NCBI GenBank assembly: GCA_964016885.1 | Contig: OZ024741.1 | Coordinates: forward strand, 296,112,001-296,176,000 | Origin: Eledone cirrhosa | Taxonomy: Eukaryota | Reading direction: 5' to 3' | Length of the DNA stretch: 64,000 nt | In this document: positions 12,034 to 62,030 of the stretch, piece after piece | How positions within the stretch are numbered: position 1 is the stretch's first letter | How the letters are laid out: each line of letters begins with the position of its first letter | Notes under the pieces: model-generated | Told to the model about the DNA's origin: nothing | Databases searched by the model: none | Seen by the model: the letters and a program-made list of their open reading frames with translations, nothing else | Made by a program: the position numbers and the translations under genes

Positions 12034-12182
12034 GTTATATTTGGGGAGGGTCATATTGTTTATAATATTGCTAGAAATAAAACACACTCACTGTTTGCTT
12101 TGGAAAACCAATCCAAACCAAAACTGAGTGTTTTATTATTTCTGGCAATATTATAAACAATATGACCCTCCCCAAATATAAC
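12034..12182. mobile_element. Palindromic remnant of the 3' end of the PLE family seen at 1-120
   Basis: Arms 12034-12090 and 12125-12182 are reverse complements and match 38-100 (GTTATA.TTGGGGAGGGTCATATT). Confidence 0.8.
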
Positions 12183-12216
12183 AATATTTCATATAAAAAA
12201 CCTTGCAAAACAAATT

Positions 12217-12657
12217 TGTATGTATGTATGTATGTATGTATGTATGTATGTATGTATGTATGTATGTATGTATGTATGTATGTATGTATGTATGTATGTA
12301 TGTATGTATGTATGTATGTATGTATGTATGTATGTATGTATGTATGTATGTATGTATGTATGTATGTATGTATGTATGTATGTATGTATGTATGTATGTA
12401 TGTATGTATGTATGTATGTATGTATGTATGTATGTATGTATGTATGTATGTATGTATGTATGTATGTATGTATGTATGTATGTATGTATGTATGTATGTA
12501 TGTATGTATGTATGTATGTATGTATGTATGTATGTATGTATGTATGTATGTATGTATGTATGTATGTATGTATGTATGTATGTATGTATGTATGTATGTA
12601 TGTATGTATGTATGTATGTATGTATGTATGTATGTATGTATGTATGTATGTATGTAT
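12217..12657. repeat. (TATG)n microsatellite, ~110 units
   Basis: Read directly from the sequence. Confidence 0.98.
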
Positions 12658-13227
12658 AATTTTATTCTGTGGCAACGTTCCTACGATAGTAAATTTTCTT
12701 TGGACATTAAAAACATTTTACATGACAAAAATAAAGTACATTTGTTAGAAATCCCAAACGTAATAAGATAAATAAGATGGGTTATGGTCTCAATATGTAA
12801 ACTAAACTATTAATTCTGGTTTTTTAAAAACATCGAGACGACCAAGAAAAATTACAGATTTTCATAAGCCCCCCCCCCCCCCCCCCCCCCCCCATTACTT
12901 AAGACCCGAGAGTACCTCCAGTGTGACTGCCATTATTTTTCCGCCATTGTAAAACTACATCATAACCTATTTATAGTATATTACAGCTACTAAGCCTCCT
13001 CCATTTATTCATCACCATTTTCCTCCTCATCCTTCTTCCTCATTTCTCACTTCTCCTCCTTTGCCGTTGTTGCTCTTGCTGCTACTGTTGTTTATTTGAA
13101 CAGCTGAGTGGGCGACTTGGCTTACAGATTTGTTTTCTTTTGGTTTTTTTTTTTCTTTTTCATTTTATTTTAGTTTTTCTCATTAACAAATGTTATATAT
13201 ATATATATATATATGTGTATGTGTGTG

Positions 13228-13415
13228 TAATTTTCTACTTTTGGCACAAGGCCAGCAATTACCAGTACATTACTGGTACTTTATTTTATCGACCCGTAAC
13301 GATGAAAGGCAAAGTTAACCTCGGCGGGATTTGAACTCGGACTGGCAAGGACGGTAACTCTATGCTGCAGAGCATGGTGTCTGGCCCTCTACCGATACTG
13401 CCAATCCACCGCCAT
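13228..13415 (-). mobile_element. tRNA-derived SINE with Deu/Nin-like core
   Basis: Reverse complement of the copy at 47956-48150. B box GAGTTCAAATCC; core GCCTTTCATC...GGGTCGATAAAATAAAGTACC. Confidence 0.8.
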
Positions 13416-15431
13416 GATGCGACGTTGTGTTTACACAATTTCACTTCATAAATATATATTTTTTAATACAACAGTTCTCATTAACAAAAGATGTTATATG
13501 TAATTTATTTTGTCATGAAAGGCGTTCCACTCATGACCAATTCGTCTGTTGTATGTCAAGGACAATATTATAGAGGGTGGTGATCTTAATTTTTTTTTTT
13601 TAAACACGCTATATATGAGGGAATTTTGTTATTTCTACTAAATTAAATGGCCTTAGGGGTGAGAAAACTCTTGTGGGTGAAATTTTGCCCTTATATTTGA
13701 AACTGCCTTTGAAGTATGAAAACCTTTATGAAATGTGGGGAAAACGGCTTAATTCTTATACAATAAAAATTCTCTTTATAAGATGCACCATTTTTAACAA
13801 AATGGCTGCATTATATTATATCAAACAATTCGATAACAGAAACAATAGAGCGCTGAGTTGAATTTGACATCATTTTAATCCATTTAAGTTCTGCGTTCAA
13901 AATGATCGGAACTGACAATGGCTTTACATGGCTAATAAAAATATACACCTTTTATAAGATGGCAGCTTTTAAACAAAATGTCTGATGTCGGTCTCTCTTA
14001 CAACTGTCTGGATGGAAATCTTTTAAATGCTGTATACTTTTCCTTCAAAAGAAGAGTACGTGCGTCTTATACAAGATTACGTTTTATACACTAAAAAATA
14101 CGGTGTTTATGAATTTGAAAAATTAAGATTCGATCATTTTCTCAGCACCCACACGATTCTATGGATGCACTTGGAATTTTCCCCTGGTAACTAGAAACGT
14201 CCCCTCCCCACTACATACATCTGGCGTATGTAGAGGCTCCATCGTGGGTTCGACTTATGGGATCTATCTATTCTGTGGCTCACGAGTATGATGGGGGTGT
14301 GGTAGTAGTAATGAGAATTCGTTCATAACTAATGTTGTGTGTATGTGTATAATGTATGTATGTTTATATCTGCATATATACAGATTAGAAGTAACCGAGA
14401 CTGCATGAATGTGTATATAAATTTCAGTATATAAACACCTAAACATGTCTAATATGTATTTTTTTTTTCAATTTACAGAGAAATACGTATATTTAGCATG
14501 TTTGCATGTCTATACACTGAAAATGTAATTTATATACACGCTTCTATATGATATATACATATTATGTAATACAATTTAAATATTTTATTCCTGTGTGGGT
14601 TGATGTGCGCGCGTGTTCATTTGTGACATTGGTGTTTCGGGTAAGAAAATATTCATATAACCATACCCGCCTACAAAAAAACACTTATAATAATAATAAG
14701 CACGCCATCATTATTGTCTTTATAGCTCTATAGGAATAATGATGATACGATACAAAAAAATGGTGTCTAAAGTACTTAACTGGTACTTTATTTTATTGAC
14801 CTCGGAAGGATGAGAACTCTACCGAGTTGGTCAATCCACCACTCAAGAATAAACAATGGTTTCTGGTTTAGGTACAAGGTCAACAATTTTGGAGAAAGGG
14901 GTAAGTCGATTAAATCGACCCCAGTGCATCACTGGTACTTTATATTATCGAACCTGTAAGGATGAAAGGCAAAGCTAACCTCGGCGGGATTTGAATAATA
15001 AATAATAACGTTCTTTATTTAGCCACTAAGACGCACCTGGTAATTCATGAAAGATTAGAAACTAAGTTTGCAATGATGATGATGATGTCTAACGTATGCA
15101 AGAGCACAGGTCTTCAATATGTAGGATAGTGGAATTGCTCTGCTACGCAGATGTACTGCTTGCTAACTTGAGACGTTATCATTTCATTTCCTCGCGAAAA
15201 GCCACCAGTTTTATTCCACTTCTGAACACACACACACACACACACTCTCTTTCTCTCTAATATATATATATATATATATATATATATATATAAAGATCAA
15301 AAGATGGTTAAAAGAGTTCCAAGTATTTTATCCGATATTTGCATTGCTTTATTGTGCTACAATAAAACTCGCCTCCTACATATATATATGTAAAATAAAA
15401 GTCAAATGTTTAAAATTTAGCTTCGTTTATT

Positions 15432-15486
15432 ACTGCTATATATATTTCGGTGACGGCCATCTTTGGTTGTGACCTCTTCAGGCAGT
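15432..15486 (-). ncRNA. Minimal type I hammerhead ribozyme (family 1, left arm)
   Basis: Minus strand: ACTGC-CTGAAGA-stem II-GAAA-TATATA-TA-GCAGT. Confidence 0.75.
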
Positions 15487-59650: not shown

Positions 59651-59676
59651 ATATATATATATATATATATATATAT

Positions 59677-60113
59677 GTAAAGTTTTATTTAAATTGTTGG
59701 GTTACAACGAGTAAATATTTATAACTGATATAAAAGCACTCAACAAGTATTTGGAGTATATTTACGATATTAAATAAATGGAAATTATATTTATAAAACC
59801 ATATTTATTTCATTATATATATTTCAGGGATATCATATTAAAAATATGTTATGCCTTCTTCAGACAAAATACAATATAAACAGTCTTATAAATAGATAGA
59901 TTCGACATACCTTTCAACTTCGACTTGCATTTGAAAAGTATGTTCAAATGCAAGTCGAAGTTGAAAGGTATGTCGAATCTATCTATTTATAAGACTGTTT
60001 ATATTGTATTTTGTCTGAAGAAGGCATAACATATTTTTAATATGATATCCCTGAAACATATATAATGAAATAAATATGGTTTTATAAATATAATTTCCAT
60101 TTATTTAATATCG
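59677..60113. mobile_element. Palindromic family 3 element with hammerheads at 59806-59871 (-) and 60007-60072 (+)
   Basis: Arms 59764-59935 and 59943-60113 with a 7-nt spacer. CTGAAGA...GAAA core. (TA)n on both sides. Confidence 0.87.
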
Positions 60114-60208
60114 TATATATATATATATATATATATATATATATATATATATATATATATATATATATATATATATATATATATATATATATATATATAT
60201 ATATATAT

Positions 60209-60950
60209 TAAAATAACAGATTAAAGTTTAAGCAAAGAATCGCTGCTTTCACCCTTAACGGGATCTTCTGAAACTAACAAAGTCAATCTGTGAACGCATA
60301 AGTGAATATTTCAAAAAACGTTGCAACCGGAGGAAGACAGGAAGACGATACTTAGGTTCGTGGAAACGTTCCCTGGCAAAGAACGGGAAAAAACGAGTAT
60401 AATACGTCATTATTTGGACCGGTGAAAAACAATTACGCGCAAAGACCTGACCACGTTTATGGTATAAAAGAAGTCGTAGACTAATGTTCTCTTAGGTGGT
60501 TCATAGAGACGTTCTCTGGCAATGAACGGTAAAAACGAAGATATGCGTCATAAGTGGAGCGTGCAGAACAATTGCACGCAAAGACAAAACCACGTAAATG
60601 GTATAACTGAAGTCGTAGACTAAAATTGTTTTTCACCGCTCCAAATAATGACGTATTATACTCGTTTTTTCCCATTCTTTGCCAGGGAACGTTTCCACGA
60701 ACCAAAGTATCGTCTTCCTGTCTTCCTCCGGTTGCAACGTCTTTTGAAATATTCACTTCTGCGTTCACAGATTGACTTTGTTAGTTTCAGTAGATCGTGT
60801 TAAGGGTGAAAGCAGCGATTCTTTGCTTAAACTTTAATCTGTTATTTTAATAAATATTTGCACTACGGTTCTTATATATTTGATATATATTTATCCTTAT
60901 CGAACCCTCTTTGGATTTTAGTCTTCAAATTTATTATTATTACTTATTAC
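60209..60950. mobile_element. Palindromic non-autonomous derivative sharing the Naiad 3' UTR
   Basis: Arms 60209-60433 and 60624-60850 are reverse complements. The outer ~160 bp match the Naiad 3' UTR; the inner sequence differs and is non-coding. (TA)n on both sides. Confidence 0.85.
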
Positions 60951-61614
60951 TATATATATATATATATATATATATATATATATATATATATATATATATA
61001 TATATATATATATATATATATATATATAATAATATATATATATATATATATATATATATATATATATATATATATATATATATATATATATATATATATA
61101 TGCGTGCGTGTATGTGTGTGTATAAGTGGAGTAAATAATAATTGTTTCTAATTTAGACACGAAGCCAACAATCCGCCTCAGAGATTTACTGGTACTTTAT
61201 TTTATCGACGCCCAGCCCCACTCCCGGGAAAGACAAAGTTGACTTTGACGGGAATTGAACTTAGAACATCAAGAGCCGTTACTAAAATCCGCAAAACATT
61301 CTGTCTGAGGCATGTCATCAAATTTCTAATGAAATATATTGTATTTCATTTATTTAATGAAGAATTTGAAGGGATTTACTAAAATTATTGATTATTTCAT
61401 TACTAAGCTGGTGTTTGTAACGTAACAAATGGTTCTTATATGAAATTATGGTGGAAGATTTTAATTTTAAGAATTTTTGTTTTTATTTTATTTTCATTTT
61501 TATATTCACTTATCAGCTGAGGAAGTACTGGGTCTTGTCATGGATTACTAGCTCTCTCTCTCTCTCTCTCTCCCTCTCTCTCTCTCTCTCTCTCTATATA
61601 TATATATATATATA

Positions 61615-62030
61615 TAAAATAAAGTTAAATAAAAGTCAAATGATTAAAATTTAGCTTCGTTTATTACTGCTATATATATTTCAGTGACAGCCATCTTTGG
61701 CTGTGACCTCATCAGGCAGTTTGAATTAGTATGGTATAGACAAGTACATATGTTGTTTAGGTGTATGATATTGTCAATACTCTGATATGCCCAGTTCCTT
61801 GTTGGGTTGTTAATTCACTGGGGAACTGGAGTCTGATGAGGTCACAGCCAAAGATGGCTGTCACTGAAATATATATAGCAGTAATAAACGAAGCTAAATT
61901 TTAATCATTTGACTTTTATTTAACTTTATTTTACACTACTCCGGAGTAACCAAACCAACCTGCGCACTTCGTCGAGTGCTCCAGCCTGCATACTGAGGTG
62001 TTGGTATACAACCAACATAAACTCAAAATC
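61615..62030. mobile_element. Palindromic family 1 element with hammerheads at 61666-61720 (-) and 61833-61883 (+, 5' stem lost)
   Basis: Homologous to 15388-15827; CTGATGA core; TA flanks. Confidence 0.85.

Follow-up and report, generated by a model that had tools for sequence, protein, structure and literature searches.

Penelope-like elements (PLEs) commonly carry an inverted, 5'-truncated second copy, often with a short tail at one end only (PMC8557442, PMC3846280, PMC2377424). Members of the Hydra clade insert into (TA)n and contain hammerhead ribozymes (PMC8557442), and they are listed for Octopus bimaculoides, including Hydra-1_Obim (PMC8557442 supplement). In Schistosoma, hammerheads have been described in pairs that lie 100-700 bp from each other on opposite strands (Cervera 2014, PMC4209133). 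The inversion has been explained by self-priming on an antisense template (Arkhipova 2013, PMC3846280), and the formation of tandem and inverted PLE structures and the bias for microsatellites were named as open questions (Craig et al. 2021, PMC8557442). Biochemically, a PLE protein cuts and extends both target strands; its reverse transcription (RT) begins inside the RNA at two neighboring sites, which mark the limits of the tail (Frangieh et al. 2024, PMC11167929). That protein belongs to the Poseidon clade and is predicted to form a dimer (PMC11167929). PLEs have also been proposed as helpers of retrozymes from co-occurrence and phylogeny (PMC7229834; Li et al. 2026, 10.64898/2026.07.22.740005). 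Here we describe eleven head-to-head inverted insertions in a 64-kb window (positions 296112001-296176000) of the 3.0 Gb genome of Eledone cirrhosa, which a first-pass annotation, made from the letters of the window, had taken for an undescribed system of hammerhead-bearing retro-insertions targeted to (TA)n.

The layout itself is not new. Inversion, one-sided tail and TA targeting are already present in the accessible text of PMC8557442 and PMC3846280, as are hammerhead pairs in that of PMC4209133. New beyond this published layout are a near-strict rule for the two outer ends, inner ends that vary independently, and retrozymes with a PLE footprint. Each family has two fixed 3' end sites: a tail-less one (N) and a tailed one (T) located 35-93 nt beyond it; ends with an incomplete tail are referred to as partial. 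The two arms of one insertion nearly always use one site each. This N+T rule, absent from the first-pass annotation, is the most informative feature of these insertions.

Inverted repeats were called after simple-repeat masking, and all eleven insertions noticed earlier were present in the window, with arm identities of 80-99%. They are given below with their parts; strands are in parentheses, and whole insertions carry none.

12033..12216, family F: 3' ends of a Neptune/Nematis-type PLE head to head, left N, right T, no hammerhead kept; its neighbors are a fragment of another hammerhead family (left) and (TGTA)n (right), with no direct TA.
15390..15826, family A: hammerheads at 15481 (-) and 15628 (+), left N, right T; TA on the left and (CT)n on the right.
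22718..22878, tRNA-type short interspersed element (SINE): its 3' parts form a head-to-head pair flanked by (TA)n, without hammerhead.
40896..41616, family C: putative 420-nt tandem retrozyme lacking long terminal repeats (non-LTR), hammerheads at 41190 (-) and 41373 (+), left T, right N.
48218..48982, family D: putative tandem retrozyme; left arm 48218-48816 of about 1.5 units with a hammerhead at 48397 (-) and an N end, right arm with a T end.
48992..49253, family E: the right arm alone has a complete hammerhead, core at 49123 (+), with a stem II of 61 nt; both arms end at N, contrary to the rule.
49743..50339, Hydra family H2, 3' end: cores at 49841 (-) and 50151 (+), left N reaching about 124 nt further inward, right T.
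57014..59649, Hydra family H1: head-to-head pair of 5'-truncated copies, left 57014-58535 N, right 58532-59649 T, with 4-nt microhomology at the central junction.
57267..58610 (-), partial Hydra open reading frame (ORF) for reverse transcriptase and endonuclease (EN), in the left arm of the 57014 insertion, its first 24 codons taken from the other arm; motifs are a divergent RT motif B, YRDD, a CxCX5C linker, GIY-YIG, CxxC and CxH.
59564..59649 (+), H1 tail from site N to site T, beginning with the RCTC..GAGY motif.
59677..60113, Hydra family H2, 3' end: cores at 59863 (-) and 60015 (+), left T, right N; the left arm is identical to three other genomic copies.
60209..60950, Hydra family H1, 3' untranslated region: variant core at 60270 (-), left N 184 nt longer inward, right T.
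61617..62034, family A: cores at 61715 (-) and 61833 (+), left N 118 nt longer inward; on the right, the T arm begins exactly with the hammerhead core (61833).

These insertions represent several element families and not one new element. The insertion first placed at 48624 is present, but its true start is 48218 and its left arm is a tandem multimer. The 3' ends point outward in all eleven, as judged from the ORF (57014), hammerhead cores, the polarity of other family copies, or the SINE. (TA)n lies on both sides of nine, the exceptions being 15390 and 12033, and nine of the ten non-SINE insertions are N+T (48992 is N+N). Hammerhead cores with stems I-III occur on both arms in families A, H2, C and H1, so the four unrelated families proposed at first stand as such; the H1 core, however, is a variant, and each window copy has one arm in which it is damaged.

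The window is rich in inverted repeats (15 calls per 64 kb) but not unique, and the pattern extends genome-wide. A random sample of 24 blocks of 50 kb (1.2 Mb) from the same genome gave 156 inverted-repeat calls, part of them redundant, with none in six blocks. TA bracketing, defined as TA at one end and at most 130 nt from the other, was found for 46 of the 156 calls compared to 6.1% of random intervals, an enrichment that had been put forward as a check on (TA)n targeting. A custom type I descriptor identified 86 hammerheads in the sample and none in the reversed DNA used as a control. Outward polarity, predicted from the window, was seen at 13/13 independent sample loci with a hammerhead on both arms. 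No hammerhead appeared among the 150 of 181 Rfam matches listed for the window, which were only microsatellite-driven miRNA matches.

The N+T rule holds in each way of sampling. In the random sample, a first set of 15 pairs comprised 12 N+T, two N with a partial tail, one T+T and no N+N, and all three pairs of families D and F were N+T, giving 15/18 N+T overall with two partial tails, one T+T and no N+N. Unpaired arms in the same sample comprised 13 N, 10 T and 5 partial ends; with partial tails counted, 17 N+T pairs of 18 at a probability of 0.5 correspond to 7e-5. End-neutral queries were used for families C and E. For C they yielded 15 N+T and one T+T (n=16), and for E, with end states read by hand, 13 N+T, four N+partial, two N+N, four without a resolved state and no T+T (n=23). 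Tail-anchored queries, whose sets include the window's own copies, found a tail-less partner in 37/39 pairs of H1, H2 and A and in 14/19 clusters of D. Family F matches confined to the internal TA run were left out of the N/T counts.

A candidate signal for the two sites was found in the Hydra families. The motif RCTC..GAGY lies 5-9 nt past both sites in H1 and H2, where the second copy is the start of the next tandem unit, and past site N in A and E. Such doubling arose by shuffling in 0/2000 trials for H2 and 40/2000 for H1. The doubled motif is absent past the sites of C and D.

That two insertions entered the same TA tract, or were brought back to back by later recombination, by chance, seems very improbable. 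The elements do cluster in TA tracts, and tail-to-tail neighbors exist (59494+/60270-). However, central junctions lack TA, the 13/13 outward loci and the N+T rule are not expected from chance neighbors, the arms share variants, and SINE neighbors, taken as a control, are evenly divided between the two orientations. The sharing is pronounced: minor alleles occur on both arms in 40/49 cases for H1, 9/12 for H2 and 42/52 for A, whereas the values between insertions are 0.16, 0.11 and 0.16.

Shared variants and one-sided tails would also be expected if one strand had folded back and copied itself, an endonuclease had trimmed one end, and later asymmetric central deletions had shifted the inner ends. 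This was examined by the inner reach of the arms, with C and D left out because their tandem units make inner ends ambiguous. Under fold-back, one arm would be copied from the other, so that containment should run one way. In a set of 49 non-redundant N+T pairs, however, the N arm was longer in 20, the T arm in 20, and both were equal in nine; in the random sample alone (n=11) the corresponding numbers were five, two and four. The differences reach 2 kb, and two pairs (B05, L032) have no arm overlap at all. Pairs with the longer N arm are no more diverged than those with the longer T arm (1.6% vs 2.2%, p=0.57) and include arm mismatches of 0/178 and 0/164. Unpaired N ends are common, and both sites act as RT starts in vitro for the Poseidon element PAc of Anolis (PMC11167929). 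The nine near-symmetric pairs and the clustering of family A junctions at a self-complementary 8-mer do fit a fold-back origin, but on balance we regard it as quite unlikely, and the data favor twin priming by a PLE enzyme over the published self-priming idea.

Library or assembly chimeras from fold-back reads are given almost no credence. The junctions of the window locus were not seen among the 15 of 193 read joints listed, as would fit an artefact. Against this, the two arms are 1-12% divergent, their end sites are specific to the family and they stop at element borders; SINE and long interspersed element (LINE) copies are mostly not mirrored; and similar joints are found in short-read data of two other studies. 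Specifically, joints of H1 left and right arms, some starting within the tail, were numerous in the short-read contigs of one sample and in the raw reads of another study, and 1578 short reads run from site N into TA. The head-to-head type of structure exists outside the assembly.

We consider it probable that these insertions arise by twin priming, in which a PLE enzyme pair cuts both strands of the target and primes one cDNA per end at N and T. The PLE origin and (TA)n targeting suggested at first are supported, and 5'-to-5' joining of two independently primed cDNAs is the most likely route. The pair would cut the two strands of (TA)n with a stagger of about 15-17 nt. One cDNA would be primed from each DNA end, one at the tail-less and the other at the tailed site of the RNA, and a single event would use both starts on the same RNA, be it tandem or circular. 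Where the arms overlap, the downstream enzyme would displace the first cDNA, and the two unfinished cDNAs would finally be joined 5'-to-5' by end-joining with short microhomology or filler. Every enzymatic step here is inferred. Informative target duplications, of 15 and 17 bp, were read at two of 101 insertions, in imperfect targets (control rate 0.25%), and TA was present on both sides of 80/101. Microhomology, scored against pooled family copies and suggested earlier as a check of the joining step, reached at least 2 nt at 10/20 clean junctions compared to the 16% expected. Filler is frequent: 41/61 junctions contain bases left unexplained, some of which are artefacts of variation among copies.

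More tentatively, and with somewhat less than even confidence, we propose that the inverted structure and the one-sided tail reflect a single event: an enzyme dimer would bind one RNA at its two tandem RCTC..GAGY signals, cut (TA)n with the above stagger and copy from both ends at once. Two-ended priming would then be the normal route for PLEs and their passenger retrozymes, and circular RNA would be copied in rolling-circle fashion on both arms.

Several observations weigh against twin priming on one RNA. Exceptions to the rule occur as T+T (L009, L119, L288, B03) and as the N+N insertion at 48992. A pair was called at no more than 8 to 18 of the 30 loci per family; many insertions must therefore have a single arm, or arms whose small size or large distance precludes a call. 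In family C the arms share variants no more than unrelated copies do (3/20 vs 0.10), giving no sign of a single template there. Only the two target duplications were readable, microhomology is modest, and arm overlaps of up to about 1.5 kb could arise only by strand displacement or with a second RNA template. T arms do not clearly accumulate at site N (4/49), which gives no sign of the T enzyme colliding there. Later asymmetric deletion at the center of a palindrome could blur inner ends. The biochemistry of two-site priming comes from another PLE clade, Poseidon.

Some of these points fit better with dual priming on two separate RNAs of the same donor, where an asymmetric enzyme pair would start at N on one and at T on the other. 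Long overlapping arms are then explained without strand displacement, shared arm variants fit two RNAs from one locus, and the T+T cases are more easily accommodated, as is the finding that family C arms share no excess of variants; such priming was put forward for L1 (PMC2837659). The near-strict N+T rule, however, needs an extra assumption, and freely chosen RNAs should give N+N and T+T about half the time, with unrelated variants. We regard this alternative as unlikely.

As for the sources of the insertions, those at 57014 and 60209 match H1 and those at 49743 and 59677 match the 3' end of H2. All 94 scored places match H1 at 93-100%, many with an open frame of 713 aa, and H1 is a young autonomous element. 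H2 contains a frame of 748 aa at locus L143. The 713-aa frames (L122, L126) and the 748-aa frame are single ORFs with YRDD and a C-terminal YIG/YVG region. Pfam gave no match for the Hydra-type or Neptune-type frames, hence domains were read by motif, and Hydra motifs were matched by eye to the alignment in the PMC8557442 supplement. Both elements show RWR, SDKT (DKT in place of DKG), a divergent RT4(B) motif FDVSMG/FDITMG, a CxCX5C linker (CNCRNRADC/CNCRDRSKC), CDLC and CKH/CRH, and no CCHH. They also have a hammerhead near the 3' end and a preference for (TA)n. RWR, DKT, CxCX5C, CxxC, CxH and the absence of CCHH define the Hydra clade, and for this reason H1 is placed there; by the same motif set, H1 and H2 are both assigned to Hydra-clade PLEs. 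The two are 41% identical to each other. The four window insertions are 5'-truncated copies of these two autonomous PLEs. H2, also labeled family B, is ruled out as a ribozyme-only passenger, being the 3' end of the 748-aa Hydra element. The proposal that all hammerhead families are such passengers fails for two of the four, H1 and H2.

The H1 hammerhead core is CAGAAGA instead of CUGANGA in 85/91 copies (a U4A variant), with stem III closed and U at the cleavage position (59494+, 60270-). Fixed in a young and abundant family, this core would be either an active variant or dispensable.

Hydra-clade EN+ PLEs (PMC8557442) resemble H1 and H2 in the C-terminal GIY-YIG, RWR/RWK, DKT, CxCX5C, CxxC and CxH motifs and the lack of CCHH, as well as in the near-3' hammerhead, (TA)n insertion, inverted 5'-truncated copy and one-ended tail. 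In contrast, that clade is described as generally <3 kb with tails of 30-40 nt (PMC8557442), whereas H1 and H2 measure 3.2 and 3.9 kb with tails of 88-89 nt, and the CAGAAGA core of H1 also sets it apart. The N+T rule, the independence of inner ends and the doubled motif are not described for the Hydra clade in the accessible text of PMC8557442. PAc is alike in its two tail-delimiting RT starts, the cutting and extension of both strands, an AT-rich target and a predicted dimer (PMC11167929). It differs in its clade and in having the two sites a few bases apart in one stem-loop region, and the accessible text of PMC11167929 does not link them to the two arms of inverted insertions.

Insertions with inverted pseudo-long terminal repeats (pLTRs), known from Adineta vaga and from Penelope of Drosophila virilis, share the head-to-head layout, the tail on one pLTR, target duplications of 8-10 bp and trans-mobilization by pLTRs (PMC3846280, PMC2377424), but self-priming is the explanation given there, and the present data argue against it for these families. 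L1 twin or dual priming is alike in that both target strands prime, the cDNAs are joined centrally and the inverted parts lie within a target duplication; it is unlike in that the internal position where the second primer anneals varies and overlapping parts are not the norm (PMC2837659). In the present families the two starts keep fixed positions about 35-93 nt from each other, poly(A) is absent and the arms overlap in most pairs. The process works like twin priming but not in its L1 form, and the features that define the latter are not found.

Families C and D consist of head-to-tail non-coding repeats with one type I hammerhead per unit, and by this organization they are probably non-LTR retrozymes. 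Units of 420 nt were found for C in six loci (L094, L099, L106, L109, L118, L119), and D has a tandem period of 438 nt in L273. Metazoan non-LTR retrozymes have the same non-coding tandem units with one type I hammerhead each (PMC7229834; 10.64898/2026.07.22.740005), although 170-400 nt is the length quoted for them. Both C and D carry the PLE insertion footprint. They would borrow a PLE enzyme, and they lack the Hydra motif. In the accessible texts, "inverted" occurs 0 times in PMC7229834 and "tail" 0 times in 10.64898/2026.07.22.740005, whereas here the PLE footprint is in the insertions themselves. A further retrozyme of about 310 nt (L222-L226 and L242-L246 in blocks B16 and B20) shows on each side a multimer arm of 1.5-1.8 kb, which is what rolling-circle copying from both ends would yield.

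The source of family F is a Neptune/Nematis-type PLE, with a CX2-5CxxC linker, a CCHH-type GIY-YIG domain and a pLTR hammerhead; a broken element of this type occupies positions 1-1400 (-) of the window, with a hammerhead core at 276, and is the parent of the 12033 palindrome. For family A, no parent ORF was found upstream in 30 loci by tblastn with two Hydra proteins, the matches belonging to neighboring insertions. It reaches at least 430 nt upstream in 6/30 loci, with no Hydra ORF or second hammerhead seen. Its inner ends (L061-L090) cluster where the hammerhead core or stem II begins and at the self-complementary 8-mer, a pattern that suggests stall or joining hotspots. Within the loci examined, no coding parent of family E was found, and E occurs there only as short stubs. 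The hammerhead with the 61-nt stem II (49117-49205 (+) in the window) is present in most of the 16 listed matches within E loci, and other copies of E carry the Hydra-type tail motif. Families A and E may be ends of longer elements not seen here. At 47885-48185 lies an E arm whose tail is separated from its body by a SINE at an AT-rich site N, and L313 is similar.

The SINE had also been counted among the mobilized passengers, a view that does not hold. TA is present at the 3' end in 6/186 SINE matches, four neighbor pairs are head-to-head and four tail-to-tail, and among 40 scored copies only the one in the window has an inverted partner. The rare 3' TA and the even orientations rule it out as a regular passenger. 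We take the window SINE to resemble octopus tRNA-derived SINEs.

The host DNA of the window is microsatellite-rich and includes two exons of a dual-specificity (MAP kinase) phosphatase, 7380-7874 and 27091-27522 (+), with rhodanese and DSPc domains; the palindromes at 12033, 15390 and 22718 sit between them. A degenerate non-LTR retrotransposon at 52446-56016 (+), with pieces at 44084-45967 (-) and 51494-52194, shows an RVT_1 match and a C-terminal restriction-like region; it is bordered by (CATA)n, not (TA)n, is not mirrored, and is presumably R4/Dong-like. Two other short palindromes lie at 47706-47829 and 31276-31369, one GC-rich without TA flanks, like a miniature inverted-repeat transposable element, and one bounded by short TA runs. 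A young nested 183-bp/84-bp minisatellite with strong strand skew occupies 34487-35709. Other families are represented by lone hammerhead-like cores or stubs at 41927 (+), 42394 (-), 39455 (-), 12032 (-) and 42091-42160, and the family of the 42091 stub makes outward pairs elsewhere (B03, B22).

The N+T rule leads to concrete predictions as to which arm starts where and which RNA motif sets each start, and the intact frames of 713 and 748 aa in this genome make these predictions testable. For animal retrozymes, the insertions provide evidence, at the level of the insertions themselves, of movement by PLE enzymes, where the earlier case was built on co-occurrence and phylogeny.

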